From contig CAVYGB010000006.1 of the NCBI GenBank assembly GCA_963767925.1, forward strand, positions 160,001-224,000: a DNA stretch of 64,000 bases. The letters are read 5' to 3'. This document shows positions 795 to 16,956 of the stretch, one piece after another. Origin of the DNA: an uncultured delta proteobacterium (GTDB lineage Bacteria; Myxococcota_A; Polyangia; Fen-1088). The position numbers and the translations under genes were made by a program. Position 1 is the first letter of the stretch. The number at the start of each line of letters is the position of its first letter. Under the pieces are notes generated by a model. The model was not told the origin of the DNA. It made no database searches and worked only from the letters and a program-made list of their open reading frames with translations.

Positions 795-861
795 TGCGCG
801 AGCCTTTGCTTGCGCGTGGCGGGCGGATCGCGGTAAGGCTGCGGCTCCTGAAAACCGAATA

Positions 862-1052
862 ACGCTTCGGGTGCCCGATACCGGGCGCCAATGGGGAAGC
901 CGGTGCGAAACCGGCGCGGTCCCGCCACTGTAAGTGGGAAGGGCCGCTCTTCACGAGCCACTCGACCCTCGACTCCCGCTGGGAGCGAGCCGGGGAAGGC
1001 GAAGAGCGGCGGAAGGTCGTCCTTCCAGCCCACGAGCCAGGAGACCCGCCCG
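862..1052 (+). ncRNA. Cobalamin (B12) riboswitch
   Basis: GGGGAAGCCGGTGCGAAACCGGCGCGGTCCCGCCACTGT, GGGAAGG and B12-box GAGCCAGGAGACCCGCC upstream of a cobalamin operon; boundaries approximate. Confidence 0.93.
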
Positions 1053-1103
1053 GAGCGAAACAAGGCACTGGCTCCGGCGGCAGACCGGAGGAAGGAATCC
1101 GAC

Positions 1104-2345
1104 ATGACGAGCACCCGTGCGCACGATCCCGCCCGAATCTCAGGCCACCGCCGAGACGGGGCCGGGGCCCTGACGAGCCTGCTGATCGCGCTGGCCCTGG
1201 CCGGTTGCGGCGAGGAAGCCGCCGCCCCCAGCGGCGGCGCCGTGACCGGCGACGCCCTGGCCGAGCGGGCGTACATCGTCAGCAAGGACCACGGTGAGCT
1301 GACCGTGATCGACCTGCGGACCATGGCCATCGCCGGGAAGGTCGACACCCTCGGCGTCGCCAACCACATGGCCGAGCTGAACGCCGACCTCAGCAAGGTG
1401 TACGTCAACTCCTCCGACACCAACGAGACCATCGTCGTCGACGCCCGCACGCTGCGCGTGCAAAAGCGGATCCTCGTCGGCGGACACCCCACCCACCTGG
1501 TGCTGACGCCCGACGGCCGTTACCTGGCCGTCATGGCCGAGGACGACAACGCCATCGTCTTCGTCGACACCAGCACGGACGAGGTGATCAAGCGCCTGCC
1601 CGGCTTCTACACGCCCCACTTCATGCGCTTCTCCGCCGACAAGCGCACCGGCTGGGTGGCCAACATCGGCGCCTCTCACGTCACGCGGGTCGAGCTCGCC
1701 AGCCTCGAGATCGTCGGGCACGTCGCCCTCGATGGCTTCGAGGGGCCGCCCAACGCCACCGAGGCCCCCGACGAGGGCGGCTTCGCCGACGCCCAGATCG
1801 ACCGCAACGGGATCCTCTACGCCGCCCACCACGCCACCGGGCGGGTGCTGGTCGTCGACACGGCCACCGGCAACAAGCGGCCCGAGCTGCGGGTCGGCAA
1901 GGGGCCCTGGGTTGTCTTCGCCGAGCACCCCTTCGCCAACCTTCCCCTGCGCCACCTGGTGCCGAACTTCGGCGACATGACGCTGTCGCTGATCGACGGC
2001 GGGGACAACCGGGTGATGAGCACCCTGCCGGGCGACGAGGAGGCCTACGGCGTGAACTTCTCGCCGCGCACGCCGGGCCGGGCCTTCGTGATGAACCGCC
2101 TGCGCAAGGACGTGGCGGTCGTCGACACGGCGGCCGGGCGGATCATGGCCCGCATCGAGGTGGGCGGAAACACCGAGACCGCCGCCACCACCGCCGACGG
2201 GCGCTACATCGTGGCCGCGGTGAGCGGGGCCGACCGGGTCGTCGTGATCGACCCCGAGACCGCCCAGGTGACGAAGGCGTTCGAGGGGGTCGGCAAGTAC
2301 CCCTGGAGCGTCACCATCCCCTTCGGGCAGAACTACTGCCACTGA
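1104..2345 (+). CDS. YncE/YVTN-type beta-propeller lipoprotein
   Basis: RBS GGAGGAAGG before ATG 1104; lipobox LAGC; repeated blades (TVIDL, IVVD, VFVDT, VVIDP); ends GQNYCH. Confidence 0.8.
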   Translation: MTSTRAHDPARISGHRRDGAGALTSLLIALALAGCGEEAAAPSGGAVTGDALAERAYIVSKDHGELTVIDLRTMAIAGKVDTLGVANHMAELNADLSKVYVNSSDTNETIVVDARTLRVQKRILVGGHPTHLVLTPDGRYLAVMAEDDNAIVFVDTSTDEVIKRLPGFYTPHFMRFSADKRTGWVANIGASHVTRVELASLEIVGHVALDGFEGPPNATEAPDEGGFADAQIDRNGILYAAHHATGRVLVVDTATGNKRPELRVGKGPWVVFAEHPFANLPLRHLVPNFGDMTLSLIDGGDNRVMSTLPGDEEAYGVNFSPRTPGRAFVMNRLRKDVAVVDTAAGRIMARIEVGGNTETAATTADGRYIVAAVSGADRVVVIDPETAQVTKAFEGVGKYPWSVTIPFGQNYCH

Positions 2346-2352
2346 AGGTCCG

Positions 2353-3429
2353 GTGTCCGGATCGCCGATCGAAGAGGGCCGGCGGCCTGCCGGCGCCGCC
2401 TGCCTTTGCGTGGGGCGGGACCGGCGGCCCTCTGCCCGCGCGATCCGCCCCACGCGGCGGGGGCCCGAGCGCGCGCTGATCTTCCTGCTCCCGCTGCTCG
2501 CGGGGCTGGCCGGCTGCCGGGGCTCGGAGGTGGCGGCCGCGCCGTCGCCGCCATCGGGTAAAGAGGGTTTCGCCGGGCCCGCGGCCGGAGGGCCGAACCC
2601 GGCGGCGGCTGCTCGGCCGGGCGGGGCGGCCCGGGTGGTGAGCTTGCACGACGTGACCACGGAGATCGTGGTGGCCCTCGGCGCGGTGGAGCGCCTGGTG
2701 GGGGTGAGCGGGGCGGTGCAGGTGCCGCCCGAGGTGGCCCGGGCGGTGGCCGGCGTGCCCCGGGTCGATGGCGCCGAGTCGATCGTGAAGGTGCGGCCCA
2801 CGGTGGTGCTGGGCACCGACGTCGTCGCCGAGCGATCGCCCGAGCTGGTGGCCTTCCTGCGCGGCCGGGGCGTCGAGGTCTGGCTGGCCAGCCCGACTAC
2901 CCTCGACGGCGTCTTCGCGGTCGTCGCGCAGGTGGCCGCCCGGGTCGGCGCGCCCGCGCGCGGGCAGGCCCTGGTGAACGGGTTGCAGGCCCGGGTCGCG
3001 GCGGCCACCCGCCCCGGGATGGTCAGGGCCGGCGGGGAGGCGCCGGCCGGGACCGGGCCCGCGCGCCGGGCGCTGCCGGTGTTCGTCTACGACTGCTGCG
3101 ACCCGGCCTTCACCGCCGCGGGCAAGACCGTCATCAGCGACGTCATCGCGCGCGCGGGCGGCCGCAACGTCTTCGCCGACCTGGACGCCGACTGGACCAA
3201 GGTCTCCTGGGAGGCGGTCGTCGCCCGCCGCCCCGGGCTCGTCGTGATCCACGACTACGCCTACGAGGGCCAGGGCGACGTCGCCGCCAAGCGCGCCCAG
3301 CTCCGGGCGATCCGCGCGCTGGCCGGCCTGCCCGAGGTGGTGTTGCCCCTCGGCCTCTCGCTCGGCGGCATCCGCAGCGTCGAGGCCCTCGAGCGTCTGG
3401 CCCCCCTCTTCGCCCGGGCCAACCCATGA
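2353..3429 (+). CDS. ABC substrate-binding lipoprotein, BtuF/TroA-like (start uncertain)
   Basis: Lipobox LAGC; RVVSL..TTEIVVALG, ESIVKVRP, AGGRNVF, VSWEAVVARRP. Confidence 0.85.
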   Translation: MSGSPIEEGRRPAGAACLCVGRDRRPSARAIRPTRRGPERALIFLLPLLAGLAGCRGSEVAAAPSPPSGKEGFAGPAAGGPNPAAAARPGGAARVVSLHDVTTEIVVALGAVERLVGVSGAVQVPPEVARAVAGVPRVDGAESIVKVRPTVVLGTDVVAERSPELVAFLRGRGVEVWLASPTTLDGVFAVVAQVAARVGAPARGQALVNGLQARVAAATRPGMVRAGGEAPAGTGPARRALPVFVYDCCDPAFTAAGKTVISDVIARAGGRNVFADLDADWTKVSWEAVVARRPGLVVIHDYAYEGQGDVAAKRAQLRAIRALAGLPEVVLPLGLSLGGIRSVEALERLAPLFARANP

Positions 3430-4448
3430 CCGGCACAGCCCGCGCCGAGGATCGGATCGGTTTGGCGGTGGCGGGGCCGGCGCCGCGTTCGCCCGTGGCG
3501 GTGCTGCTGGCCCTGGCGCTCGTGGTGTTTTTCGCGGCGGTGGGCGGCCTGGCGGTGGGGGCCTCGGGGGTGCGCTGGGATCTGCTCTCCGCCCTGCTGG
3601 GCGGAGACGAGGTGGTGGCGACGCTGCGGGGGCCCCGGGTGCTGCTGGCGGCCCTGACCGGGGCGGAGCTGGCCCTGGCCGGCCTGGCGATGCAGGCGGT
3701 GCTGCGCAACGACCTCGCCGATCCGTACGTGCTGGGGGTGTCGGGCGGCGCCTCGTTGGCGGCGGTGGCCTCGCTGGCCCTCTGGCCGGGGTTGCCCCCG
3801 GGACCGGCGGCGGCGCTCGGGGCGGCGGCGGCGACCGGCCTGGTGCGGGGGCTGGCCGGGCCGGCGCCCGGATCGAGCCGGTTGATCCTCACCGGGGTGG
3901 CGGTGGGCTCGCTGCTGGCCAGCGTGACCGGCCTGGTGCTCGTGCTGGCCCCGGCCGAGCGGCTGCTGCGCTCGGCCTTCTTCTGGCTGTTCGGCGGCTT
4001 CGGGACCCCCGGCCTGGCGGCGGCCCTCGTGCCCGCCGTCGCGCTGGGGCTGGCGCTGGCCTGGATGCACGGCCGCGCCGAGCGCCTGGATCGGCTGGCC
4101 CTCGGCGACGACGTGGCCACCTCGCTCGGCGTCGACGTCGCCCGGTTGCGGCGGGTGGCGCTGCTGGTGGCGGTGCTGCTCACCGCGAGCGCGGTTGCGG
4201 CCGCCGGCCTGATCGGCTTCGTCGGGCTGATCGCGCCCCACGCCGCCCGCCGGCTGGTGGGCGCCAAGCACCGCCGGCTGGTCGGCGTCTCGGCGCTGCT
4301 CGGCGCCGCCCTGGTGATGCTCGCCGACACGGCCGCTCGCACGGCGTTCCAGCCCCGCGAGGTCCCGGTCGGGCTGCTGACCGCCGGGGTCGGCGGCCCG
4401 CTCTTTCTCTACCTGCTCGCGCGGAGGCAAGCGCCGTGGGCGACCTGA
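3426..4448 (+). CDS. FecCD/BtuC-family ABC permease
   Basis: RGPRVL, QAVLRNDLADPYVLGVS, LGDDVATSLGV, GLIGFVGLIAPH, PVGLLTAGVGGPLF. Confidence 0.92.
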   Translation: MTGTARAEDRIGLAVAGPAPRSPVAVLLALALVVFFAAVGGLAVGASGVRWDLLSALLGGDEVVATLRGPRVLLAALTGAELALAGLAMQAVLRNDLADPYVLGVSGGASLAAVASLALWPGLPPGPAAALGAAAATGLVRGLAGPAPGSSRLILTGVAVGSLLASVTGLVLVLAPAERLLRSAFFWLFGGFGTPGLAAALVPAVALGLALAWMHGRAERLDRLALGDDVATSLGVDVARLRRVALLVAVLLTASAVAAAGLIGFVGLIAPHAARRLVGAKHRRLVGVSALLGAALVMLADTAARTAFQPREVPVGLLTAGVGGPLFLYLLARRQAPWAT

Positions 4449-6577
4449 TCGCCGCGGACGCGGCGGACACCGCCCGGACCCTGGCGCCCGGGCCGGCGCT
4501 GGTCGACGGAGCGGAGGTGCGCGCGGAGGACCTGGCGGTGGGGCGCGGCGGGCGGACGGTGCTGCGCGGGATCGACCTCGCGATCGCGCCGGGCGAGCAG
4601 CTCGCGCTGGTGGGAGCGAACGGGTCGGGCAAGACCACCCTGCTGCGGGCGCTGGCCGGGCTGGATCAGCCGCTCGCCGGGCGCCTGACCTGGGCGGGCG
4701 GGCCGCTGCCGCCGGGCCCCGCGCGTGTGCGCTCGCTCGGCGTGCTGTTCCAGGCCGAGCCTCCGGGGCCGTTCACGGTGGCCGAGCTGGTGGCCCTCGG
4801 GCTGGGCCTCGACGGCCCGCCCGGTCCGACCCAGCGCGATCGGGTGACCGCCACCCTCGCCCGCCTCGATCTGACGGCGCTGGCCCACCGCCCCTGCACC
4901 GCGCTCTCGGGCGGCGAGTGGCAGCGGGCCGCGCTCGGCCGGGCCCTCGTCGCCGGGGCCCGGGTGCTCCTGCTCGACGAGCCGGCCAGCCACCTCGATC
5001 CCGCCCGCCGGGCGGGGCTGCGCCGCCTGCTCGACAGTTTGCGCCCGGAGGTGGCGGTCGTCCTGGCCACCCACGACCTCGAGCAGGCCGCCCTGTGCGA
5101 CAGGGTGCTGCTGCTCGCCGGCGGCGGACCGCTCGCCCTCGGCCCGGCCCGCGAGGTCCTCACCCCGGACCGGCTGGCCGCCGCCCTCGACGTCGAGGTC
5201 CGCCGTCTCGACGATCCCGAGGGCGGCCCCCCGCTGTTCCGCGTGCTCGGCCCGGCCCGGAGCCGGCGGCCCGGCGAGACGCCCCCCGCGCCCCCGGCCC
5301 CACCCGCCGCCGACCCCGCCCGCCCCGCAGCGCGCCCCGGCGCCAGCCTGCTGCCGCGCGGGGGCCGCCGGAGCCTCGGCGTGCTCGTGGTGGGGCACGG
5401 CAGCCGCGAGGCGAAGGCCAACGAGGAATTCCTCACCCTCGTCGAGGCCTTCCGCGCGCGGGTGGCCCGCCCCGCCGGGGACGCGCTGGCCCGGCCCGTC
5501 GACGAGGTGGCGCACGCTCACATCGAGCTGGTCGGACCCTTCGTCGACGAGGCGCTCGCCGCGCTGGCCGCCCGCCACGACACGGTCGTGGTGCTGCCCC
5601 TGTTCCTGCTGCTGGTCGGCCACGCCAAGAACGATCTGCCGATCGCCCTGGCCCGGGCCCGGGCCGCCTTCCCCGCCGTGCGCTTCTCGGTCGGGCGCGA
5701 GCTCGGCATCCACACCTTGCTGCTCGACCTGCTGTACGAGCGGGCCGCCGCCGCCACGCCGCCCGAGGAGACCGGCAAGACCGCGGTCATCGTCGTGGGG
5801 CGGGGGTCGAGCGACCCCGACGCCAACGGCGAGCTGTGCAAGCTGGTGCGGCTGTTCGGCGAGGGGCGGGGCTTCGCCGCCGTCGCGCCGGCCTTCGCCG
5901 GGATCACGTCGCCGCGGCTGGCCGACGCCCTCGAGCAGGCGGCCCGCTCCCGGCCCGGCCGCATCCTCGTGGTCCCCCACCTGCTGTTCGCCGGCCGCCT
6001 CGTCGACCGCCTGCGCGAGGAGACGGCGGCCTTCGGCGCCCGTTACCCCTGGATCCGCACCACCGTGGCCGGGCACCTCGGCCCCGACCCGCGCCTCGGC
6101 GAGATCCTGGAGCAGCGGCTCGCCGAGGCGCTCTCCGGCCGGGACCCCCTGCCCTGCGACACCTGCCAGTACCGGGTGCCGGTGGCCGGCGTCGCCAGCA
6201 GCGTCGGTGGCCTGCGGGCCCTCCTCTGGAGCGTGCGGCACGGCTTCACCCACAGCCAGGCGGCGCCCCACCTGCACGCCCACCGCCCGCTCAGCAAACA
6301 CGTCCTCGTGTGCGGCAACGTCGACTGCGCCGCCGGCGGCAGCCTGGCCCTGCTCGACCGGCTGCGCCGGCTGATCAAGCGCGCCGGCCGCCAGCGGGAC
6401 ATCCGGGTGACCCGCACCTCGTGCATGGGCCGCTGTGGCGAGGGACCCACCGTGGCGGTCTACCCCGACGGCGTCTGGTACCGGGCCGTGCGCGAGACCG
6501 ACGCCGAGGACCTGGTGCGCGAGCACCTGCTGGCCGATCGCCTTGTCGCGCGGCTGGTCGACAACATCATGCAGTGA
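4436..6577 (+). CDS. cbiX: Fusion of BtuD/FepC-type ABC ATPase, long-form CbiX cobaltochelatase and thioredoxin-like [2Fe-2S] ferredoxin
   Basis: Walker A GANGSGKTT, LSGGE, LLLDE, ATHD; Pro/Ala linker; two CbiX repeats (VVGHGS, VVGRGSSD); CDTC; His-rich stretch; VCGNVDC...SCMGRCGEGP.VAVYPDGVWY. Confidence 0.88.
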   Translation: MGDLIAADAADTARTLAPGPALVDGAEVRAEDLAVGRGGRTVLRGIDLAIAPGEQLALVGANGSGKTTLLRALAGLDQPLAGRLTWAGGPLPPGPARVRSLGVLFQAEPPGPFTVAELVALGLGLDGPPGPTQRDRVTATLARLDLTALAHRPCTALSGGEWQRAALGRALVAGARVLLLDEPASHLDPARRAGLRRLLDSLRPEVAVVLATHDLEQAALCDRVLLLAGGGPLALGPAREVLTPDRLAAALDVEVRRLDDPEGGPPLFRVLGPARSRRPGETPPAPPAPPAADPARPAARPGASLLPRGGRRSLGVLVVGHGSREAKANEEFLTLVEAFRARVARPAGDALARPVDEVAHAHIELVGPFVDEALAALAARHDTVVVLPLFLLLVGHAKNDLPIALARARAAFPAVRFSVGRELGIHTLLLDLLYERAAAATPPEETGKTAVIVVGRGSSDPDANGELCKLVRLFGEGRGFAAVAPAFAGITSPRLADALEQAARSRPGRILVVPHLLFAGRLVDRLREETAAFGARYPWIRTTVAGHLGPDPRLGEILEQRLAEALSGRDPLPCDTCQYRVPVAGVASSVGGLRALLWSVRHGFTHSQAAPHLHAHRPLSKHVLVCGNVDCAAGGSLALLDRLRRLIKRAGRQRDIRVTRTSCMGRCGEGPTVAVYPDGVWYRAVRETDAEDLVREHLLADRLVARLVDNIMQ

Positions 6578-6591
6578 AAGAGAGGAAGATC

Positions 6592-6966
6592 ATGGCCTGT
6601 CACGAAATCGCCGCCCTCCGCCTGGGCCTCATGCAGGTGCTCGGCCGCAAGGACGAAGCCGAGCGGCAACACGAGATCGCCGAGCTGGGCAAAGGCGCGG
6701 AGGCGCCCGGTCCCATCCGCTCGCTGTGCGGGGCCCAGGACCTGGCCAACCTGCAGAGCTTTTACGCCAGCGCGCTCGCCGATCTGAACAGCAAGGTGGC
6801 CGACATGCGCCCGGACGATCCCCAGCTCGCCTACCACCGCACGCTGGTGGTCCTCACCAAGAAGGTCGAGCTGGACCTGGCCGCCCAGATCGACAACCTC
6901 ACCCGCCTCTATCAAGACCTGGACGAGATGCACGACTTCGTCCACGAGATGTACCCGGCCGAGTGA
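6592..6966 (+). CDS. DUF3209-like cobalamin-cluster protein
   Basis: RBS GAGGAAG; MACHEIAALRLGLM...ERQHE N-terminus recognised from DUF3209. Confidence 0.75.
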   Translation: MACHEIAALRLGLMQVLGRKDEAERQHEIAELGKGAEAPGPIRSLCGAQDLANLQSFYASALADLNSKVADMRPDDPQLAYHRTLVVLTKKVELDLAAQIDNLTRLYQDLDEMHDFVHEMYPAE

Positions 6967-6970
6967 CCCC

Positions 6971-7774
6971 ATGGCCGTGACTCGCTTCGCAACCCTCCGC
7001 GCCGCCGAGCCCCTCGGCGGCGACACCCGCCTGCTCTCCTTCGATCTGCACGGTGACGAGCCGCTGGGGTTCTCCGGCGGGCAATACCTCATCGTCGACG
7101 CGGGCCTGGTCCTCCCCTCGGGCAAGGCGGTCAAGCGCGCCTATTCCATCCTCACCCCCGACGGCGACCAGCACCGCTTCACCCTGGCCAGCAAGCGGAT
7201 CGACCCCGGCCCCGGCTCGGGGTACATGCACGGGCTGCTCCCGGGCGCCGAGATCAAGTTCAGCGGCCCCTGGGGCAAGCTGCGACCGGACGGAGAGCGG
7301 CCGGGCCGGGTGCTCGTCCTCGCCACCGACACGGGGGTGACGGCCACCCTCGGGCTGGTGCTGGGCCGGGCCTTCGCCCCGCTGCTGCCGCGCACCCACT
7401 TCGTCTGGCTGCGCCCCGACCCCGGCTATTTCCTGCCCGAGGCCCTGGTCCGCGAGCGGCTCCCGGCCGGGCTGGAGGAGGTGGCGATCGACCTGCTGCC
7501 CCCCATCGGCCACCCCGAGCGGGTGGCCCACGTGCGCACGCGGCTGGCCGACGATCTCGGCCGCGCCGGCTCCAGCGCCCGCCGGCAGCCGGTGGCCCAG
7601 GCCTTCATCGCCGGGGACGGGACCATCAACTACGCGCTGCTCGACGACCTTGTCGCGGCCGGCATCCCCGCCACCCGGGACCACCTGGAGAGCTTCTTCA
7701 ACATGCCCAAGAAGAGCCCGGCGGCCCCCCCGGCCGGCGCAACGGCTACCGGAGCGAAGGGGGAGGCGGCATAG
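6971..7774 (+). CDS. FAD-dependent oxidoreductase, ferredoxin-NADP reductase-like
   Basis: FSGGQY, KRAYSI (RxYS), GPGSGYMH, SGPWG, ATDTGVT. Confidence 0.8.
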   Translation: MAVTRFATLRAAEPLGGDTRLLSFDLHGDEPLGFSGGQYLIVDAGLVLPSGKAVKRAYSILTPDGDQHRFTLASKRIDPGPGSGYMHGLLPGAEIKFSGPWGKLRPDGERPGRVLVLATDTGVTATLGLVLGRAFAPLLPRTHFVWLRPDPGYFLPEALVRERLPAGLEEVAIDLLPPIGHPERVAHVRTRLADDLGRAGSSARRQPVAQAFIAGDGTINYALLDDLVAAGIPATRDHLESFFNMPKKSPAAPPAGATATGAKGEAA

Positions 7775-7784
7775 TCCGTGGATC

Positions 7785-8888
7785 GTGGAACGCCCACCGA
7801 CTCCCGAGGAGAGAAAGCGGCTGCGCACCGGCTTCACCACCGGGGCCTGCGCGGCCGCGGCGGCCAAGGCGGCGGCCCGGGCCCTGCGCACGGGCGCGCC
7901 CCTCACGGAGATCGAGACCACCTTGCCCAACCGGCAGCGGGTGACCTTCGCCCTGAAGCGCTGCGAGATCCTCGGGCAGCAGGCGACGGCGAGCGTGATC
8001 AAGGACGCGGGCGACGATCCCGACTGCACCCACGGGGCGGAGCTGACCGCCACCGTCGAGCTGACCGACACCCCGGACATCGTGCTGCAGGCGGGGGCCG
8101 GGGTGGCCACCGTGACCAAGCCGGGGCTGGGTCTGGAGGTGGGTGGGCCGGCCATCACCGCGGTGCCGCGCAAGAACATCCGCGAGATGGTGGCGGCGGA
8201 GCTGGCGCCCGGGCAGGGGGCCATCGTCGTCATCAGCGTGCCGGGGGGCGAGGAGATGGCCAAGCAGACGCTCAACGCCCGGCTGGGCCTGCTCGGCGGC
8301 ATCTCGATCCTGGGGACCACCGGGATCGTCAAGCCGTACTCCACGGCTGCCTACAAGGCCAGCGTGGTGCAGGCCATCGACGTGGCCCACGAGCGGGGGC
8401 TGCGGACGGTGGTGGTGACAACCGGGGGCAAGTCCGAGACCTACGCCATGAAGCTGCACCCGGGCCTGCCCGAGGAGGCGTTCATCCAGATGGGTGACTT
8501 CGTCGGGATCACCCTGCGCCACTGCGCCCGCCGGGGCATCGAGCAGGCGGTCGTCGTCGGCATGATCGGCAAGCTGTCGAAGATGGCCGATGGCAAGATG
8601 CAGACCCACGCCGCCGGCTCCGAGGTGAACATGGAGCTGCTGGCCAACCTGGCGGCCGAGCTCGGCGCCAGCTCCGAGCTGCAGGCCCGCATCCGGGCGG
8701 CCAACACCGCCCGGCACGTGCTGGAGATCTGCACCGCCGAGGGGCTGACCGGCATCGCCGCCCTGATCTGCCGCAAGGTGGTGGGTCACGGCACCCGGCA
8801 CGCGGGGGGAACCCTCGCGGTGGCGGCGGTGCTCGTCGATTTCGACGGAAAAGTGCTGGGACGTTTCCCGGAGACGGAGTCGACATGA
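7785..8888 (+). CDS. cbiD: Cobalt-precorrin-5B C1-methyltransferase
   Basis: LRTGFTTGACAAAAAKAA, KDAGDDPDCTHG, TLNARLGLLGGISILGTTGIVKPYS; GTG start inferred. Confidence 0.95.
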   Translation: MERPPTPEERKRLRTGFTTGACAAAAAKAAARALRTGAPLTEIETTLPNRQRVTFALKRCEILGQQATASVIKDAGDDPDCTHGAELTATVELTDTPDIVLQAGAGVATVTKPGLGLEVGGPAITAVPRKNIREMVAAELAPGQGAIVVISVPGGEEMAKQTLNARLGLLGGISILGTTGIVKPYSTAAYKASVVQAIDVAHERGLRTVVVTTGGKSETYAMKLHPGLPEEAFIQMGDFVGITLRHCARRGIEQAVVVGMIGKLSKMADGKMQTHAAGSEVNMELLANLAAELGASSELQARIRAANTARHVLEICTAEGLTGIAALICRKVVGHGTRHAGGTLAVAAVLVDFDGKVLGRFPETEST

Positions 8889-9601
8889 ACGAGGAACAGA
8901 CCAGAGCGCGCGGACCCGCCGAGGCCGCGCCGTCCGACATGCGGCAGATGACCGACCGCGGGCGCAACATCGAGGACTCCAGCTTCGCCATCATCGACGC
9001 CGAGGCCGGGGAGCACGGCTTTGGCCCCCGCGACTGGCAGGTGGTGCGGCGGGTCGTGCACGCCACCGCCGACTTCGAGTTCGTGAAGCTCATGCGCCTG
9101 CACCCCGAAGCAGTGGCGGCAGGGGTGCGGGCCCTGCGCGGCGGCTGCCCGGTGCTCGTCGACGTCAAGATGATCGCCGCCGGGCTCAACGAGGACCGGC
9201 TGCGGGCCTACGGCTGCGCCATCCACTCCCACATCTCCGACGAGGACGTGATCGCCACCGCCCGGGCGGCCAACTCCACCCGGGCCATCGAGGCCATGCG
9301 CAAGGCCCACCGCCTGGGCCTGCTCGACGGCGCCGTGGTGGCCATCGGCAACGCCCCCACCGCCCTGCTCGAGCTGGTCCGGCTGGTAAACCAGGAGGGG
9401 GCCCGCCCGGCCCTCGTGATCGGCGTGCCGGTGGGGTTCGTGTCGGCGGCCGAGTCGAAGGAGGCCGCCCTGGGCCTCGCGGTCCCCACCATCGTGGCCC
9501 GCGGGCGCAAGGGGGGCAGCCCCATCGCGGTGGCCATCATCCACGCCCTCCTCCTCCTCAGCGTCGAGCCGAAGGCCGGCGAAGCGGGAGGGCCGGCGTG
9601 A
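8885..9601 (+). CDS. cbiC: Precorrin-8X methylmutase
   Basis: IEDSSFAII, RVVHATAD, AIGNAPTAL, PVGFVSAAESK, GRKGGS. Confidence 0.95.
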   Translation: MNEEQTRARGPAEAAPSDMRQMTDRGRNIEDSSFAIIDAEAGEHGFGPRDWQVVRRVVHATADFEFVKLMRLHPEAVAAGVRALRGGCPVLVDVKMIAAGLNEDRLRAYGCAIHSHISDEDVIATARAANSTRAIEAMRKAHRLGLLDGAVVAIGNAPTALLELVRLVNQEGARPALVIGVPVGFVSAAESKEAALGLAVPTIVARGRKGGSPIAVAIIHALLLLSVEPKAGEAGGPA

Positions 9602-10866
9602 AGCCCGGACGGGCGGTCCGCGTGATCGGCATCGGAGACGACGGCTGCAAGGGCCTGTCGGCCAGGGCCATGGAGGCGGTCCTCACCGCCGAGTGGCTGG
9701 TGGGGGGCGAGCGCCAGCTCGGTTTTTTCCCCCAGTTTCGCGGCGAGCGCATCGTGCTCAAAGGTGGCCTGCTGCCCGCCCTCGATCGGGTGGCGGCGCT
9801 GGCCGACGAGCACAACGTCTGCGTGCTGGCCTCGGGCGACCCGCTGTTCTTCGGGGTGGGAGGCCTGCTCGTCGAGCGGCTGGGGGCCGAACACGTCGAG
9901 GTGCTGCCGCAGCCGAGCGCTCTGCAGTGGGCCTTCGCCCGGGCGGGGCTGCGCTGGGACGACGCCGACTTTCTCTCGCTGCACGGCCGCTCGCGCGAGG
10001 GGTTCCTCACCCGCCTCCGCGGCAGCCGCAAGCTGGCCCTGTTCACCGACGCCAGCAACAACCCCGCCGCCCTGGCCGCCTTCCTGCTCGAGCACGGGCA
10101 GACCGGCTTTACCGCCTGGGTGTGCGAGAACCTGGGCGGCCCCGACGAGCGGGTGCGGCGCTTCTCGATCGCCGACCTGGCCGCCTGCGCCGACGTGGGC
10201 CCCCTCAACGTGCTCATCCTCGTGCGCGACGATCCGGCCTGGCGCCCGCCCCCCGCGATCCCCTTCCTGCACGAGGACGCCTTCGCCAAGCGCATGCCGA
10301 AGAAGGGCCTCATCACGAAACGGGAGGTGCGCCTGCTGTCGCTGGCCGCCCTGCAGATCCGCCCGGACAGCGTTGTCTGGGACATCGGCGCCGGCTCCGG
10401 CTCGGTGGCCATCGAGGCCGCGCTGCTGGCGCCCCGGGGCCGGGTCTACGCGATCGAGGTGGACCCCGAGGGGGTGGAGATCTGCCGGGACAACCTGCGC
10501 ACCCACGCCGTGGACAACGTGCGGGTCATCGCCGGGAGGGCCCCCGAGGCCCTGGCCGACCTGGAGGCGCCCGACGCCGTGTTCGTGGGCGGCAGCCAGG
10601 GCAGCCTCGAGGAGATCGCCGAGGTCGCCCTGCAGCGGCTGCGGCCGGGTGGCCGGCTGGTGGTCAACGCCATCACCCTCGACAACACCACCGAGGCCTA
10701 CGGGCTGTTCAAGCGGCACGGGCTCCTTCCCGAGGTGACCCTGCTGCAGGTGTCGCGCTCGCAGCCCATCGGCAAGGGGCCCGAGGCGGGGGGCCACCGC
10801 TACCTGCGCTTCGAGGCCCTCAACCCGATCCAGATCTTCGCGGTCAGCAAGGAAGGCAGCTCATGA
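9598..10866 (+). CDS. cbiET: Bifunctional precorrin-6Y C5,15-methyltransferase (decarboxylating), CbiE-CbiT
   Basis: VIGIGDDG, LASGDPLFFGVG, ITKREVR, WDIGAGSGSVAIE, PDAVFVGG. Confidence 0.93.
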   Translation: MKPGRAVRVIGIGDDGCKGLSARAMEAVLTAEWLVGGERQLGFFPQFRGERIVLKGGLLPALDRVAALADEHNVCVLASGDPLFFGVGGLLVERLGAEHVEVLPQPSALQWAFARAGLRWDDADFLSLHGRSREGFLTRLRGSRKLALFTDASNNPAALAAFLLEHGQTGFTAWVCENLGGPDERVRRFSIADLAACADVGPLNVLILVRDDPAWRPPPAIPFLHEDAFAKRMPKKGLITKREVRLLSLAALQIRPDSVVWDIGAGSGSVAIEAALLAPRGRVYAIEVDPEGVEICRDNLRTHAVDNVRVIAGRAPEALADLEAPDAVFVGGSQGSLEEIAEVALQRLRPGGRLVVNAITLDNTTEAYGLFKRHGLLPEVTLLQVSRSQPIGKGPEAGGHRYLRFEALNPIQIFAVSKEGSS

Positions 10867-11667
10867 CCGGCAACGGCGACGGCGCCCCCGCCCCACGCTC
10901 CGAAGGCGCCTCCCGGGCCAAGCTCTACGGCGTGGGGGTCGGCCCCGGCGCGCCCGATCTCCTCACCTTCCGCGCGCAGCGAGTCCTGCGCGAGAGCCAG
11001 GTGCTGGTGCTCCCGCGGGCCAACGACCACACCGGGTCGATGGCCTGGCGGATCGCCCGTTCGGTTGTGGGGGAGGTGCCCGGGCAAGAGCGCCTGTTCC
11101 TCACCTTCCCGATGCGCAAGGACCCCGACCTGCTGCGGCCGGCCTGGGACCGGGCCTTCGCCGAGATCGGGGCCCGCCTCGAGCGCGGGCTGACCGTCGC
11201 CTTCGTGACCGAGGGGGACCCCTCCGTCTACAGCACCTTCATCTATCTGGCCCGGGAGGCTCCCCGCCGCTGGCCCGGCGTCCCGGTCGAGGTGGTCCCG
11301 GGGGTCACCTCGGTCACGGCGGTGCCAGCGGTGACCGGCGTGCCGCTGGCCGACGGCCTCGAGCGGATCGCCATCGTGCCGGCCAACTACGGGGTGCCCG
11401 ACCTGGCCGAGCTCCTGCACGAAGTTCGACACCGTGGTCCTCATGAAGATCGGAGGTGAGATGCCGGCGGTGATCGAGGCCCTCGAGCGCACCGCCCTCA
11501 CCGACCGGGCGGTCTTCGTCTCCCGGGCCACCATGCCCGACCAGCGGATCGAGCGCGACGTGCGCCAGGTGGGGGCCGAACACGGCGACTGCTTCGCCAT
11601 GGTGGTGGTGGCCAAGAAGGAGCGCAACGGCGTGTTGCTCCCCGAGACGCCGGGGGGCGGACGATGA
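10863..11667 (+). pseudogene. cbiL: Precorrin-2 C20-methyltransferase with frameshift near 11417-11424 (possible sequencing error)
   Basis: LYGVGVGPGAPDLLT, EGDPSVYSTF and VVPGVTS in the first frame; FDTVVLMK...CFAMVVV continues in the next frame to 11667. Confidence 0.85.
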
Positions 11668-12791
11668 GCAGCGCGCGGCGGCCGTTCGCCGTCTATGCCA
11701 TCACCCGCCACGGGATCGAGATCGCCAGCCGCCTGCTGGCCGGGCTGCCCGAGGCCGACCTCTACGTCTCCGAGAAGCTGTTCGACCGGGCGCCGGCCGG
11801 GGCCCGGCGGCTGCCCCTGCCGATGGGGCCGCTGCTCACCGACGCCTTCTTCGCCTACGACTGCCACCTGTTCGTGATCAGCGTGGGGGCGGTGGTGCGC
11901 ATGGTGGCCCCCCTGCTGAAGAACAAGAAGGTCGACCCGGCGGTGCTGTGCGTGGACGACGCCAGCCGCTTCACCATCTGCGTGCTGTCGGGCCACGTCG
12001 GGCGGGGCAACGCCTTCACCGAGCGGGTGTCGACCCTCCTCGGCAACCAGGCGGTCATCACCACCGCCTCCGACGTCATCGGCACCCTCACGGTGGACAT
12101 CCTGGGGCGGGACCTGGGCTGGACCCTCGACGATCCCGACCGCAACGTCACCCGGGGCTGCGCCGCGGTGGTGAACGCCGCCCCGGTGCTGTTCGTGCAG
12201 GAGGCGGGCGAGGCGGGCTTCTGGCCCGAGGACCGGCCGCTGCCCGAGGGGGTGAGCTACACCCGCTCGCTCGAGGGGGTGGACCCCGCCGCCCACGAGA
12301 TCCTGCTCATCGCCAGCGACCGCGACCTGCGGGCCACCCACCCGGCCCACTTCGCCAACGCCGTTGTCTACCGGCCCAAGAGCCTGGTGCTCGGCATCGG
12401 CTGCGACCGGGGCACGGCGCCCGAGCTGATCGAGCGGGGGGTGGCGGCCTTGCTCGAGCGGTACGGCCTGTCGCAAAAGTGCGTGAAGGCGGTCGCCACC
12501 CTCGACCGGAAGGCCGACGAGCCCGGGCTGCTCGCCCTGTGCGAGCAGCACGGCTGGCCCCTGCGCGCCTTCACCGCCGCCGAGCTGGACGCCGTCCCCG
12601 GCATCGAGAACCCCTCGGCGGTGGTCGAGCGCCACGTGGGCACCCGGGGCGTGTCCGAGCCGGCCGCGCTGCTGGCGGCGGGGGCCGACCGCCTGCTGGT
12701 CGGCAAGCAGATCTACACCGAGCCCGGGGCCGGGCGCTCGATGACCCTGGCGGTGGCGCGCATCCCCTTTGCTCCCAGGAGACAGCCATGA
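11664..12791 (+). CDS. cbiG: Cobalt-precorrin-5A hydrolase
   Basis: GAVVRMVAP, DPAVLCVDD, LSGHVGRGN, VITTASD, LVLGIGC, GVSEPAAL. Confidence 0.93.
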   Translation: MSSARRPFAVYAITRHGIEIASRLLAGLPEADLYVSEKLFDRAPAGARRLPLPMGPLLTDAFFAYDCHLFVISVGAVVRMVAPLLKNKKVDPAVLCVDDASRFTICVLSGHVGRGNAFTERVSTLLGNQAVITTASDVIGTLTVDILGRDLGWTLDDPDRNVTRGCAAVVNAAPVLFVQEAGEAGFWPEDRPLPEGVSYTRSLEGVDPAAHEILLIASDRDLRATHPAHFANAVVYRPKSLVLGIGCDRGTAPELIERGVAALLERYGLSQKCVKAVATLDRKADEPGLLALCEQHGWPLRAFTAAELDAVPGIENPSAVVERHVGTRGVSEPAALLAAGADRLLVGKQIYTEPGAGRSMTLAVARIPFAPRRQP

Positions 12792-13720
12792 GCGACGGCA
12801 AGATCGACGGCGAGGGCGACGGCGACAGCGACAGCGCGGCGAGAGGCTCGCTCACCATCGTGGGCATCGGGCCGGGCGCGGAGGACCACACGACCCCCGC
12901 CGCCCTGCGGGCCATCCGGGAGGCGGAGGTGGTGGTCGGCTACACGACCTACATCCGGCTGGTGCGGCCGCTGCTCGCGGGCAAGGAGATCATCAAGACC
13001 GGCATGACCGAGGAGATCGGGCGAGCCCGGGCCGCGGTCGAGCGGGCCCGGGCGGGGGCCAAGGTGGTGATCATCTCCTCGGGAGACGCGGGGGTGTACG
13101 GCATGGCAGGCCTCGTGTTCCAGGTCCTGCAGGACATCGGCTGGCGGCGGGGGGACCCGCCCCGGCTGGGGATGGTGCCGGGCATGACCGCCCTGAACTC
13201 GACCGCCTCCCTGGTGGGGGCGCCGCTGGGGCACGACTTCTGCGCCATCTCCCTCTCCGATCTGCTGACCCCCTGGCCGATCATCGCCCGGCGGATCGAG
13301 GCGGCGGCGGCCTCCGACTTCGTGATCGGCCTTTACAACCCGGCCAGCGGGCGGCGGCAGCGGCAGCTCGTCGAGGCCCAGGCGATCATCCGCCGGCACC
13401 GCCCGGGGACCACGCCGGTGGGCCTGGTCAAGAGCGCCTACCGGAAGCTGCAGCAGGTGGACCTGACCGACCTCGATCACCTGCTGCAGTTCGAGATCGG
13501 CATGTTGACCACGGTGCTGGTCGGCTCGAGCCAGACCTTCGTCTACGAGGGGTACATGATCACGCCCCGGGGCTACACGAACAAGTACACCTGGGAGGGC
13601 GAGACGTTGCCCGGCCAGACCCCCGGTCGCAGCCTGGTGATCGACAGCGCGGCCACGGCCACGGCCACGGCGACAGCCACAGCGACAGCGCCGCCGCAGC
13701 CGTCGAGGGAGGAGCCATGA
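12788..13720 (+). CDS. cbiH: Precorrin-3B C17-methyltransferase
   Basis: IVGIGPG, ISSGDAGVYGMAG, GAPLGHDFCAISLSDLLTPW, MITPRGY. Confidence 0.93.
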   Translation: MSDGKIDGEGDGDSDSAARGSLTIVGIGPGAEDHTTPAALRAIREAEVVVGYTTYIRLVRPLLAGKEIIKTGMTEEIGRARAAVERARAGAKVVIISSGDAGVYGMAGLVFQVLQDIGWRRGDPPRLGMVPGMTALNSTASLVGAPLGHDFCAISLSDLLTPWPIIARRIEAAAASDFVIGLYNPASGRRQRQLVEAQAIIRRHRPGTTPVGLVKSAYRKLQQVDLTDLDHLLQFEIGMLTTVLVGSSQTFVYEGYMITPRGYTNKYTWEGETLPGQTPGRSLVIDSAATATATATATATAPPQPSREEP

Positions 13721-14142
13721 GCCGGGTGGGACGGCTGGCGGGGGCGCTGCTGGCCGAGACCGAGGGGCGCTACTTCCTGGTGGGCAACCTCAAGCGGCCT
13801 TGCGACTTCGCGGCCGCCGGGTTCGAGGCGCCGGCGGTGGCGGTCGATGCCCAGGCCCGGCCCTACCTCGAGCTGCGGCGGGCGGGCCGGTTCGCCGTCG
13901 ACAGCGTCTGGCTGGTGCTGCCCCTCGAGGGGGAGGCCCTCGCCCGGGAGCTGGCCGAGCGGATGGTGATCACCCGTACCGGATCGGTGAGCGACCGGCT
14001 GTGGCGGCTGATCCTGGGAGAGGACGAAGAAGACGCTGCCCCGGCCAGCCCACAACCCGGCGAGGTGCCAGCGGCCTGGGTGGTGGAGATGCCGGGGCGG
14101 GTGTGGGCGATCGTCCGGGACACCGTCCTGAGGTGCACGTGA
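13717..14142 (+). CDS. Hypothetical protein translationally coupled within the cbi operon
   Basis: RBS GGAGGAG; ATGA and GTGA overlaps with cbiH and cbiF; YFLVGNLKRPC...TGSVSDRLW. Confidence 0.75.
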   Translation: MSRVGRLAGALLAETEGRYFLVGNLKRPCDFAAAGFEAPAVAVDAQARPYLELRRAGRFAVDSVWLVLPLEGEALARELAERMVITRTGSVSDRLWRLILGEDEEDAAPASPQPGEVPAAWVVEMPGRVWAIVRDTVLRCT

Positions 14143-14903
14143 AGGTCTACGTGATCGGGGCGGGGCCGGGCGACCCGGGGCTGTTGACCCTGCGGGGGGC
14201 CGAGCTGATCGGGCGCTGCCCGGTGGTGCTGTACACCGGCTCGCTGGTGCCGCCCGAGGTCGTGGCGCGGGCCCGGGCCGACGCGCGCGTGCTGGACTCG
14301 TCGGGGATGACCCTCGACGAGATCGTCGCCGTCATCGTGGAAGCGCGCGACGCCGACCAGGACGTGGCCCGGGTGCACACCGGCGACCCCAGCCTGTTCG
14401 GATCGACGGCCGAGCAGATGCGGCGGCTGGAGGCCCTGGGCATCGCCTGCGAGGTGGTGCCGGGGGTCTCCTCCTTCAGCGCGGCGGCGGCGGCCCTCGG
14501 CAAGGAGCTGACCCTGCCCGAGCTGTCGCAGACCGTGATCCTCACCCGCGTCGAGGGGCGCACGCCGATGCCCCCGGGCGAGAAGCTGGCCGACCTGGCC
14601 CAGCACGGCGCCACCCTGGCCCTGTTTCTCAGCATCACCCTGCTCGACGAGGTGGCCCGGACGCTGATCCCGGCCTACGGCGCGGACTGCCCGGTCGCGG
14701 TCGTGCACCGGGCGAGCTGGCCCGATCAGAAGATCGTCACCGGCACCCTGGCCGACATCCACGCCAAGGTGAAGGCGGCCCGCATCCGCACCCAGTCGAT
14801 GATCCTGGTGGGCCGGGTCCTCACCGCGACCGACTTCGCCAACTCCCGCCTGTACGACCCCAGCTTCAGCCACCGCTACCGAAAGGCCCGGAGGACGCCA
14901 TGA
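14139..14903 (+). CDS. cbiF: Precorrin-4 C11-methyltransferase
   Basis: VYVIGAGPGDPGLLT, LYTGSLV, RVHTGDPSLFG, ELTLPELSQTVILTR, SRLYD. Confidence 0.95.
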   Translation: MKVYVIGAGPGDPGLLTLRGAELIGRCPVVLYTGSLVPPEVVARARADARVLDSSGMTLDEIVAVIVEARDADQDVARVHTGDPSLFGSTAEQMRRLEALGIACEVVPGVSSFSAAAAALGKELTLPELSQTVILTRVEGRTPMPPGEKLADLAQHGATLALFLSITLLDEVARTLIPAYGADCPVAVVHRASWPDQKIVTGTLADIHAKVKAARIRTQSMILVGRVLTATDFANSRLYDPSFSHRYRKARRTP

Positions 14904-15481
14904 AGGAAGGCAAATCCGAGGGCAACTCCGAGGGGCCGTCCCGGGAGGGATCCGAGGCGGCGCCGGAGCGGGGCCTGCTGATGGTCTACACCGGGCAGGG
15001 CAAGGGCAAGACCACGGCGGCGCTGGGCCTGTGCTTCCGGGCGCTGGGGCGGGGGATGAAGGTGGCGATGATCCAGTTCATCAAGGGCAAGTGGAAGACC
15101 GGCGAGCGCCTGTTCGCCGAGCGGCTGCCCGAGCTGACCTTCCTGGTGATGGGGCGCGGCTTCACCTGGAACAGCGACGACCTGTCGAAGGACAAGGAGG
15201 CCGCCCAGGCGGCCTGGGAGCAGGCCCGGGCGCTCATCGCCGGCGGCGAACACGCCCTGGTGATCCTCGACGAGCTGACCTACGTCCTCAACTACGGCTT
15301 CGTCCCGCTGGCCGACGTGCTGGCGGCGCTGGAGCAGCGGCCGCCGCAGGTGCACGTCGTGATCACCGGGCGCAACGCCCCCGAAGCGCTGGTGGCCCGC
15401 GCCGACCTCGTCACCGACATGCAGAACGTCAAGCACCCGTTCAGCCAGGGCCGGGCTGCCCAGCTCGGGATCGACTACTGA
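14900..15481 (+). CDS. cobO: Cob(I)yrinic acid a,c-diamide adenosyltransferase
   Basis: VYTGQGKGKTTAALG, QFIKG, VILDE, VITGRNAP, KHPF...GIDY. Confidence 0.95.
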   Translation: MKEGKSEGNSEGPSREGSEAAPERGLLMVYTGQGKGKTTAALGLCFRALGRGMKVAMIQFIKGKWKTGERLFAERLPELTFLVMGRGFTWNSDDLSKDKEAAQAAWEQARALIAGGEHALVILDELTYVLNYGFVPLADVLAALEQRPPQVHVVITGRNAPEALVARADLVTDMQNVKHPFSQGRAAQLGIDY

Positions 15482-15486
15482 CCGCC

Positions 15487-16956
15487 ATGAGCGCCGCCCA
15501 TCGCCGGATCCCGCGCATCGTTGTGGCGGGCACCAGCAGCGGGGTGGGCAAGACGAGCGCGGTGGTGGGGCTGTGCCGGGCGCTGCGGGCCCGCGGCCTT
15601 GTCGTGGCCCCCTTCAAGTGTGGACCCGACTACCTCGACCCCACCTACCACGCGCGGGCCTGCGGCCGGACCTGCCACAACCTCGACGGCTGGCTGATGG
15701 GCAAGCGCGCCGCCCTCGAGACCTTCGTGGCCGGGGCGGCGGGCGCCGACATCGCCGTGATCGAGGGGGTGATGGGCCTTTACGACGGCGCCTCCCCCAC
15801 CGAGGAGGCGGGATCGACCGCCGAGCTGGCCAAGTGGCTGGAGGCGCCGGTGCTGCTGGTGCTCGACGCGGGCGGCATGGCCCGCACCATCGCCGCGGTG
15901 GCAGGCGGCTTCGTGGCGTTCGACCCCGCCCTGGCGCTGGCGGGCGTCATCGCCAACCGGGTGGGCAGCCGGAGCCACCTGCAGCTCCTCGGGGAGGCGC
16001 TGCGCCGCCCGCCGGTGCTGGGCGGCTTCCCGGTGGCCGAAGGCCAGGCCTTCGCCAGCCGCCACCTGGGCCTGCGCACCGCCGATCGGGCGGCGGTCCC
16101 CGAGGAGCGTCTCGACGCCTGGGGCAGCCTGGTCGAGCAATGGTGGAACCTCGACGCGGTCCTGGCCCTCGCCCGCCAGGCCGCCGACCCGTCGCGCACC
16201 GCCGATACGCCCGCACCCACCGCCGCCGCCCCCGCACCCACCGCCGCCAGCCCGCCGCCCGCCCGCCCGCGCTGCCGCATCGGCTACGCGCTCGATGAGG
16301 CGTTTCATTTCTATTACGAAGACAACCTGCGCCGGCTGGCCGGGCTGGGCGCCGAGCTGGTGCCGTTTTCGCCGCTCCGGGACCGGCGTTTGCCCGAGGT
16401 GGACGGCCTGTACCTCGGCGGCGGCTACCCGGAGGTGCACGCGGCGACGCTGGCCGCCAACCGGGAGCTGGCCGCCGCCATCGGCGAATTTGCGCGGAGG
16501 GGACGTCCGGTCTACGCGGAATGCGGCGGCCTCATGTATCTTGCGCAAGCCATCGTGACCACCGAAGGAACCGCACATCCCATGGTTGGCTTGCTCCCCG
16601 GGCAAGCCGTCGTCTCCCCCCGCCTCGAAGCGCTCGGCTACGTCGAGGTCGAGCTCCAGCAGCCCTCGATCCTCGGGCCACCCGGCCTGCGCTTCCGGGG
16701 CCACCAGTTCCGCTACTCCCGCCTCGTCGGCGTCGGTGACGGCGCCGGCACCGGGGCAAGCGCCAGCGCCGAGGCAGGCGCCAGCGCCGACCGGGTCTAC
16801 TCCGTGCGCCGCCGCCGCGGCGGCGAGGTGACCCGCGAGGGCTACCGGGCCGGGACCGTCCTCGGCAGCTACGTGCACGCCCACTGGGCCTCCAACCCCC
16901 TCCTCGCCGAGCACCTCGTGCAAAGTTGCGCCTCCGGGGCCGGAGGGGGACGATGA
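15487..16956 (+). CDS. cbiA: Cobyrinate a,c-diamide synthase
   Basis: SGVGKT, FKCGPDYLDP, IEGVMGLYDG, AFHFYY, YAECGGLMYL, SYVHAH. Confidence 0.95.
   Translation: MSAAHRRIPRIVVAGTSSGVGKTSAVVGLCRALRARGLVVAPFKCGPDYLDPTYHARACGRTCHNLDGWLMGKRAALETFVAGAAGADIAVIEGVMGLYDGASPTEEAGSTAELAKWLEAPVLLVLDAGGMARTIAAVAGGFVAFDPALALAGVIANRVGSRSHLQLLGEALRRPPVLGGFPVAEGQAFASRHLGLRTADRAAVPEERLDAWGSLVEQWWNLDAVLALARQAADPSRTADTPAPTAAAPAPTAASPPPARPRCRIGYALDEAFHFYYEDNLRRLAGLGAELVPFSPLRDRRLPEVDGLYLGGGYPEVHAATLAANRELAAAIGEFARRGRPVYAECGGLMYLAQAIVTTEGTAHPMVGLLPGQAVVSPRLEALGYVEVELQQPSILGPPGLRFRGHQFRYSRLVGVGDGAGTGASASAEAGASADRVYSVRRRRGGEVTREGYRAGTVLGSYVHAHWASNPLLAEHLVQSCASGAGGGR

Follow-up and report, generated by a model that had tools for sequence, protein, structure and literature searches.

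Does an importer ATPase share one polypeptide with a predicted cobaltochelatase, and, if it does, what might that importer carry? The question is raised by a 64,000-nucleotide stretch of DNA (the window; contig CAVYGB010000006.1, positions 160,001 to 224,000) from an uncultured delta proteobacterium of the Polyangia, in which an open reading frame (ORF) at 4436..6577 on the + strand runs in a single frame from a GTG start through 713 residues of stop-free translation. We think it probable that this gene is a genuine, recent and lineage-confined fusion of an ATP-binding cassette (ABC) ATPase gene with a gene for a CbiX-ferredoxin (CbiX-Fd) chelatase, in an importer that most likely brings in cobalt. 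The predicted parts of the fused gene are as follows.

4436..5251, + strand: ABC ATPase domain, residues 1-272 (Pfam ABC_tran, intact motifs)
5252..5368, + strand: Pro/Ala/Arg-rich linker, residues 273-311 (from the translation; neither sequence nor length conserved)
5369..6154, + strand: two CbiX repeats, a chelatase core of the CbiX-long type (Pfam CbiX, SirB structures)
6155..6283, + strand: CDTC motif C574-C577 and His-rich stretch H602-H616 (translation, alignment)
6293..6577, + strand: thioredoxin-like [2Fe-2S] ferredoxin domain and stop codon (Pfam, PDB, four Cys)

An earlier sequence-only reading of this ORF, made without database searches, had named an ATPase, two CbiX repeats, a CDTC motif, a His-rich stretch and a ferredoxin, and translation together with Pfam bears out each of these. 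ABC_tran matches residues 43-184 at 96.2 bits against a cut-off of 25, and CbiX scores 148 bits over two stretches, the best of them at 456-560; the 2Fe-2S_thioredx match (residues 620-695) is marginal at 25.8 bits against 24.8. Every ATPase motif is preserved (Walker A G60-T67, the LSGG signature L157-R164, Walker B L178-E182 and the H-loop H213), and the domain is 58-75% identical to standalone ATPases of relatives. Motifs, Pfam score and the adjoining permease and binding-protein genes together place it in the class of type-II (FecCD-class) importer ATPases. It scores below the NCBIfam cut-offs of the named equivalogs (heme PRK13548, 153.7 against 261 bits; BtuD PRK03695, 105.4 against 281; FecE, 119.4 against 375). 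The 5' start of the fused gene is uncertain: a start at GTG 4436 would lie within the permease gene, with 13 nucleotides of overlap up to the permease stop, and standalone ATPases of relatives start about 24 residues later, so that translation may truly begin some 24 codons downstream.

The chelatase half is equally complete. All 128 rows of an alignment of CbiX-Fd proteins are invariant at the His pair of the first CbiX repeat (H321/H396), at both Cys of the C574-D-T-C577 motif (in the context L-P-C-D-T-C), at H602 and H616 of the His-rich stretch and at the four ferredoxin Cys C626, C631, C663 and C667 (C-x4-C ... C-x3-C). The second CbiX repeat has GRGS where the first has GHGS. Among solved structures in the PDB, those of SirB match residues 4-253 of the CbiX-Fd part (6jv6, E-value 1e-27; 5zt7, 2e-26), and 7t2r_B, 7q4v_B and 1f37 match the ferredoxin domain.

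The source of the window is a metagenome-assembled genome (MAG) of 9.3 Mb in 13 contigs, 84% complete, and the fusion could in principle be an assembly or sequencing artefact of an organism that has two genes. The MAG has few, long contigs, the linker is rich in G+C with runs of C and G, and the cobD gene of the same operon is frameshifted near 17,540, so indel errors or real pseudogenes do occur in this MAG. The cobD/cobC aminotransferase (16926-18057) is split there: ORF 16926 supplies the reading frame of the N-terminal half, 17548-18057 that of the C-terminal half. Whether it is a true pseudogene or arose from an indel in the assembly, the split calls for caution with this MAG. A simple error at the ATPase-chelatase junction is nevertheless unlikely. 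From 4873 to 6371 (about 1.5 kb) all three forward frames are free of stop codons, which confirms what the sequence-only reading had said of the linker, so a single linker indel cannot give the ATPase its own end or restore two genes. The junction has some 100 nucleotides more than that of a same-genus genome, and the ancestral chelatase start is gone. Finally, a second metagenome, assembled independently, encodes a 714-residue protein (P0003) that shares this architecture, is 74% identical to the window protein over 97% of the query and groups with it in a tree (see below). We regard the fusion as most likely real and an artefact as very improbable.

Composition is of no help here: G+C is 75-84% across the fused-gene region and about 90% at each of the three codon positions of the linker, so that it cannot reveal which frame is read. 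A search of public sequencing runs listed a single run, from a soil metagenome, that shared sampled words with the window (6% of them), and none of RNA; at 80% likeness the soil-metagenome run gave short contig pieces on the conserved ABC and CbiX parts and none bridging 5250-5385, and is uninformative on the linker.

How the two genes may have come to be joined can be read from the junctions of relatives. In the same-genus genome (G001, whose locus is L001) the ATPase ends ...APEAA-TGA and overlaps the chelatase start GTG-AGC-GAC in the tetranucleotide GTGA. Such a four-nucleotide stop/start overlap (ATGA or GTGA) is present in three of the four type-II junctions read at DNA level (L001, L006 and L018), and Ala is the last residue in 30 of 41 standalone ATPases of the clade, as expected from an overlap of the form GCN-TGA. 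In the window, about 100 extra C-rich nucleotides stand at this place and there is neither Met nor Val at the ancestral start; the resulting linker of about 40 Pro/Ala/Arg-rich residues lies between the end of the ATPase ('PPLFRVLG') and the first CbiX strand ('VLVVGHGS'). The ancestral ATPase tail is still recognisable as 'RRPGE' (compare the standalone P0276, which ends 'RAPGEAA'). The linker is absent from G001, and that of P0003 differs from it in sequence and in length. ATPase C-terminal tails of the window's clade are hypervariable and carry tandem peptide repeats in L006 (6742-6822, 'DEHSTP...') and in P0274 (a repeat of about 30 residues); the gene junction seems prone to expansion.

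The architecture is very rare in sequence collections. A search of 5.8 billion proteins gave, among the best 120 matches, the window protein, P0003 and 118 standalone proteins of 392-445 residues, which among the matches listed cover the chelatase-ferredoxin part only. When 300 residues around the junction were compared with 1.84 billion representatives, both halves were covered by none of the best 150 matches, and none of 46 matches to short junction-spanning fragments covered both sides (top coverage 47%). A strict first pass of the junction segment against 400 other genomes of the phylum, the window's family left out, gave no match at E <= 1e-25, a weak negative. Among the papers listed by our literature searches, none concerns an ABC transporter/cobaltochelatase fusion, as judged by titles and the openings of abstracts. 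The sequence-only reading, which knew of no transporter ATPase fused to a chelatase, was thus right about the rarity, with P0003 the sole other case among the best 120 matches.

Relatives keep the two genes apart. Among 18 loci examined by frame, an ABC ATPase gene lies upstream of the chelatase gene in 11, in every one of them in a different frame and with its own stop, and the genes are likewise separate in the family-level relatives G001, G009, G012 and G036. Separate genes are the arrangement in every other relative we examined, with fused P0003 as the exception. The covalent link is therefore dispensable, and any coupling of the two activities needs none; the link may be neutral, or may make permanent a contact that in relatives is non-covalent.

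A careful tree of 20 CbiX-Fd rows, for which 18 of the 118 standalone matches were kept as the nearest clades, unites P0003, the window protein and a third protein, P0004, in one group (support 90/84), within which the window protein pairs with P0004 (98/95). The sister group consists of the unfused P0005, P0006 and P0007 (the G001 protein), with support 100/98. P0004, which like P0003 was compared as a protein only, lacks a start codon and opens with Leu followed by 11 residues that resemble a linker; a contig end has probably truncated it, and it may be a further fusion. In the ATPase tree a seven-member clade is kept (support 96) and the branching inside it is not resolved, so that it is compatible with one origin as well as with two for the fusions in the window and in P0003. 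On present sequences the fusion appears in one small group of soil myxobacteria.

Several of these facts weigh against the reading that we prefer and deserve to be put together. The full-length chain is a prediction from the DNA sequence of a MAG with an indel or a pseudogene in the same operon; all other relatives examined have separate ATPase and chelatase genes; P0004, whose first residue is L, may or may not be fused; and the ATPase nearest by identity (P0272, 75%) appears to be standalone and sits in the same ATPase clade as the window's.

A further possibility concerns translation and turns on one short element of the junction.

5370..5383, + strand: putative internal start for free CbiX-Fd (GGAG, 7 nucleotides, GTG encoding V316)

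The GGAG at 5370-5373, the 7-nucleotide gap and the in-frame GTG at 5381-5383 are present just as the sequence-only reading had described them. The working chelatase might then be mostly free CbiX-Fd made from GTG 5381, with the full-length chain a minor or inert by-product. Two comparisons speak for this: the cbiX start of the same-genus relative is served by a GGAG inside the 3' end of the ATPase gene, and P0003 retains a Met at the ancestral start (GGQ-M-TTAVLVVGHGS). Yet standalone relatives have 3-4 residues ahead of the first strand that a start at V316 would lose, GGAG is frequent in DNA of 80% G+C, and with no stop after the ATPase ribosomes would read on into CbiX-Fd, giving full-length chain whenever the ATPase is made. 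We hold it quite improbable that the free form is the main one; GTG 5381 might still give some free chelatase alongside the fused chain.

What the fused protein might do depends on its neighbours, which form an operon for cobalamin synthesis on the + strand.

852..1067, + strand: cobalamin riboswitch heading the operon (Rfam RF00174, 95.3 bits, E-value 1.8e-22)
1104..2345, + strand: YVTN/YncE-type beta-propeller lipoprotein, first gene (Pfam YNCE and Cytochrom_D1; lipobox LALAGC)
2353..3429, + strand: periplasmic substrate-binding protein (Pfam Peripla_BP_2; BtuF equivalog score 62 bits against a cut-off of 234)
3426..4448, + strand: FecCD-family permease of a type-II ABC importer (Pfam FecCD, 261 bits)
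6592..6966, + strand: DUF3209 gene directly after the fused gene (Pfam PF11483, E-value 1.7e-48, full length)
6971..7774, + strand: FNR-like flavoprotein after DUF3209 (Pfam FAD_binding_6)
7800..15481, + strand: early-cobalt genes cbiD, cbiC, cbiET, cbiL, cbiG, cbiH-like, cbiF and cobA (NCBIfam, Pfam)

The operon continues after cobA with cbiA, cobD and cobQ, and no second cobalamin riboswitch turned up in the genome, which is 84% complete. The first gene was listed as ORF 891, which overlaps the riboswitch aptamer at 852-1067; its M72 corresponds to ATG 1104, with the lipobox LALAGC after it, and ATG 1104 is the likely true start of the lipoprotein.

Because cbiD and cbiG mark the early-cobalt route, the CbiX part is, by context, the cobaltochelatase of this pathway. 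Metal specificity cannot be read from structure, according to the review PMC7689651, and it is operon context only (cbiD, cbiG, cbiL and others) that points to insertion of Co(II). The genes that follow are conserved with the chelatase, DUF3209 and the FNR-like gene coming after cbiX-Fd in nearly all the bacterial loci, over five phyla: the block cbiX-Fd, DUF3209, FNR-like gene, cbiD is kept in loci of Nitrospira, Myxococcota, Planctomycetota, Leptospira and Bdellovibrionota, the FNR-like gene lies downstream of cbiX-Fd in 22 of 23 bacterial loci (L001-L023), and in N. defluvii (L005, 7236-8339) DUF3209 likewise comes after cbiX-Fd. CbiJ (PF02571) has no match in the window's genome, and the reduction of cobalt-precorrin-6A that is thereby missing, or another redox step, might fall to the ferredoxin domain, DUF3209 and the flavoprotein.

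The CbiX-ferredoxin form of about 393 residues is itself widespread, occurring in Nitrospirota, Myxococcota, Planctomycetota and haloarchaea, and in the literature searched we found no report of its activity. As an observation on this family (P0004-P0121, L024-L053), Myxococcota and Nitrospira copies are about 60% identical and haloarchaeal copies 40-45%, with long invariant stretches around LPCDTCQYR and at the C-terminus. So unusual a degree of conservation suggests strong constraint or transfer between phyla.

Family likeness does not settle the cargo of the importer; more telling is what stands between the riboswitch and cbiX-Fd. A cobalamin riboswitch heads the unit in all eight relatives tested. 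It directly precedes cbiX-Fd in N. defluvii (L005) and in L020 and L003; it precedes cbiM in Sorangium (L012, L013) and Myxococcus (L019), where the interval before cbiX-Fd is taken up by cbiM and an ABC ATPase gene, separated by cbiQ in L013; and it precedes the beta-propeller gene in two Kofleriaceae loci (L006, L018), as in the window. An energy-coupling factor (ECF) cobalt importer and the type-II cassette are, by these gene orders, alternative inserts at one operon slot. The two are also mutually exclusive in the 11 genomes checked: CbiM was found in none of six genomes with the type-II cassette, and a close orthologue of the binding protein in none of five with cbiM, where the best matches reached 31-34% identity against 57-60% for true orthologues and no riboswitch lay beside these weak matches. 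The swap of slot contents looks like non-orthologous replacement of a cobalt importer. In the window's genome, moreover, CbtA has no match and NicO a sub-threshold match only. Because the cassette occupies the cbiM-cbiQ-cbiO slot and the two types exclude one another, we suggest that the type-II importer is probably the operon's cobalt supply, carrying free cobalt or a complex.

The other candidate is corrinoid salvage. The importer would then be of the BtuFCD kind, taking up B12 or cobinamide with the help of a BtuG-like lipoprotein, and the fusion would be a tolerated accident of overlapping neighbours. B12 riboswitches commonly control B12 importers. The solved structures nearest to the binding protein (5gj3, 2r7a, 5khl and BtuF) bind heme or B12, and in NCBIfam the ATPase comes closest to heme and corrinoid ABC ATPases, with the scores given above. 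The YVTN/YncE beta-propeller lipoprotein that opens the operon has weak matches to the BtuG2 entries 3dsm, 8bai and 8baz (E-values 0.02-0.03), no stretch of which passes on its own; its better matches are 1l0q (9e-22) and NirF (7.6e-11). An accident would also come easily where a stop/start overlap lets an in-frame fusion arise and where ATPase tails are as hypervariable and repeat-rich as those of L006 and P0274. This account is at odds with the position of the cassette, which lies inside a de novo pathway operon at the cbiM-cbiQ-cbiO slot and excludes cbiM; with the operon's lack of a TonB-dependent receptor (Pfam, NCBIfam); and with BtuF, BtuC and BtuD equivalog scores that are all far below their cut-offs. 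Moreover, Co(II) is the substrate of CbtJ of Sinorhizobium meliloti, another BtuF-like protein (PMC7689651), and therefore family likeness does not decide the substrate.

On the lipoprotein itself we add that a beta-propeller lipoprotein upstream of the binding protein is also encoded in L006 (2797-3945) and L018 (2905-3990), at 56-63% identity; it has been kept with the ABC cassette in Kofleriaceae and resembles tetrapyrrole-binding NirF moderately and B12-binding BtuG2 faintly.

Cobalt import, which the sequence-only reading had coupled to insertion as a possibility, thus finds favour in the shared slot and in the exclusion seen in 11 genomes; what does not fit so well is a binding protein whose nearest solved relatives are of the heme/B12 class, and for which no similarity to CbtJ of S. 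meliloti could be detected, and a lipoprotein with a faint likeness to BtuG2. The 11 genomes are, furthermore, kin and several of them incomplete, which makes their exclusion an argument and not a proof. Taking both sides together, we rate cobalt, free or in a complex, as roughly twice as probable a substrate as a salvaged corrinoid, and consider salvage combined with an accidental fusion unlikely, though the most substantial of the alternatives.

The sequence of events that we favour, a recent fusion within a probable cobalt-supply operon, runs as follows. In the ancestor, the ATPase gene, last of the importer genes, was followed by the CbiX-Fd gene and translationally coupled to it through the four-nucleotide stop/start overlap. 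About 100 nucleotides of C-rich low-complexity sequence then took the place of the overlap, making one chain of two. As catalytic and ligand residues are all intact, both halves would be expected to keep their activities. The ATPase dimer beneath the permease would bear two chelatases on flexible tethers of about 40 residues, fixing a 1:1 ratio and keeping the chelatase close to the cytoplasmic side of the membrane. Cobalt, free or complexed, would most likely be what is imported, for use in the early-cobalt B12 pathway, and the tether would set the chelatase and its His-rich stretch where that cobalt arrives. The corresponding stretch of Bacillus (Priestia) megaterium CbiX-long has a proposed role in metal storage and delivery (PMC7689651). 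So long and flexible a tether would raise local concentration and build no closed channel. Sequence comparison shows the domain architecture and how rare it is, the overlapping genes from which it came, the surrounding operon and the exchange of transporters; we infer expression of the full-length chain, the substrate and any gain from proximity. The fusion hints at a link between import and insertion without proving it.

A bolder version, to which we give little credence, is that the importer releases Co(II) or its complex at the ATPase dimer, where the tethered CbiX-Fd takes it over through the His-rich and Cys motifs and puts it into sirohydrochlorin, bypassing the buffered cytosolic pool. 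Relatives with two translationally coupled genes would achieve the same by a non-covalent complex, and the cassette of lipoprotein, binding protein, permease and ATPase would represent an unrecognised family of cobalt uptake systems.

Metal biology has yet to explain how the early-cobalt chelatases CbiK and CbiX obtain cobalt amid far more abundant competing metals, and we know of no delivery partner for either. Natural fusions such as this one, of an importer ATPase with a chelatase, often point to proteins that act together. Combined with the slot shared with CbiMNQO, it leads to the hypothesis that the cassette serves cobalt uptake and that uptake and chelation are spatially coupled. Were the fusion a mere tolerated accident, it would show how overlapping stop and start codons in G+C-rich genomes turn operon neighbours into multidomain proteins. 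In either case the CbiX-ferredoxin family, with its DUF3209 and FNR-like partners, is flagged as worth biochemical work.

Among characterised proteins, the chelatase half is closest to CbiX-long of B. megaterium, which as described in PMC7689651 also has two CbiX repeats with the catalytic His pair (His14/His79) in the first, is extended at its C-terminus by a segment bearing CxxC and many His residues, and is encoded in a cbi operon of the early-cobalt type. The Cys motif of CbiX-long is MxCxxC and holds a 4Fe-4S cluster (PMC7689651), whereas that of the window protein reads L-P-C-D-T-C. The window-type chelatase further differs from CbiX-long in its fused thioredoxin-like [2Fe-2S] domain, and the window protein in its N-terminal ABC ATPase. 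The B. megaterium operon also encodes a separate ferredoxin-like protein, CbiW.

For the importer, a precedent comes from S. meliloti, a late-cobalt organism. Its CbtJKL is reported to be a BtuF-like, riboswitch-controlled ABC importer of Co(II) (PMC7689651). We located the riboswitch and the ORFs on pSymB, and the likeness lies in an ABC importer under cobalamin riboswitch control. Its permease and ATPase are 37.5% and 38.9% identical to those of the window, values that are generic for the class. Orthology did not emerge: the window's binding protein gave no tblastn match at E <= 1e-3, nor one in the plasmid collection at 1e-8. Unlike the window, CbtJKL has no chelatase adjoining or fused and no beta-propeller lipoprotein.

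BtuCD-F and HmuUV-T share with the window a FecCD permease, a Peripla_BP_2 binding protein and the same class of ATPase, and BtuG offers the parallel of a lipoprotein of the seven-bladed-propeller type beside a transporter under a B12 riboswitch (PMC6143338). Against these parallels stand scores far below the equivalog cut-offs and weak BtuG2 matches; BtuG homologues are reported to be confined to Bacteroidetes (PMC6143338), the window operon has no BtuB, and the ATPases of those systems carry no chelatase.

The CbiMNQO importers of Sorangium and Myxococcus occupy the same position between riboswitch and cbiX-Fd, and there too the ATPase gene abuts cbiX-Fd. They differ in being of the ECF class, without a binding protein or a FecCD permease, and their ATPases are 37-40% identical to the window's and unfused, in a different frame and with their own stop. 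Each part of the window protein is thus of a known kind, and it is the combination of ATPase and chelatase that appears to be the new element, found in our sequence searches nowhere else but in P0003.

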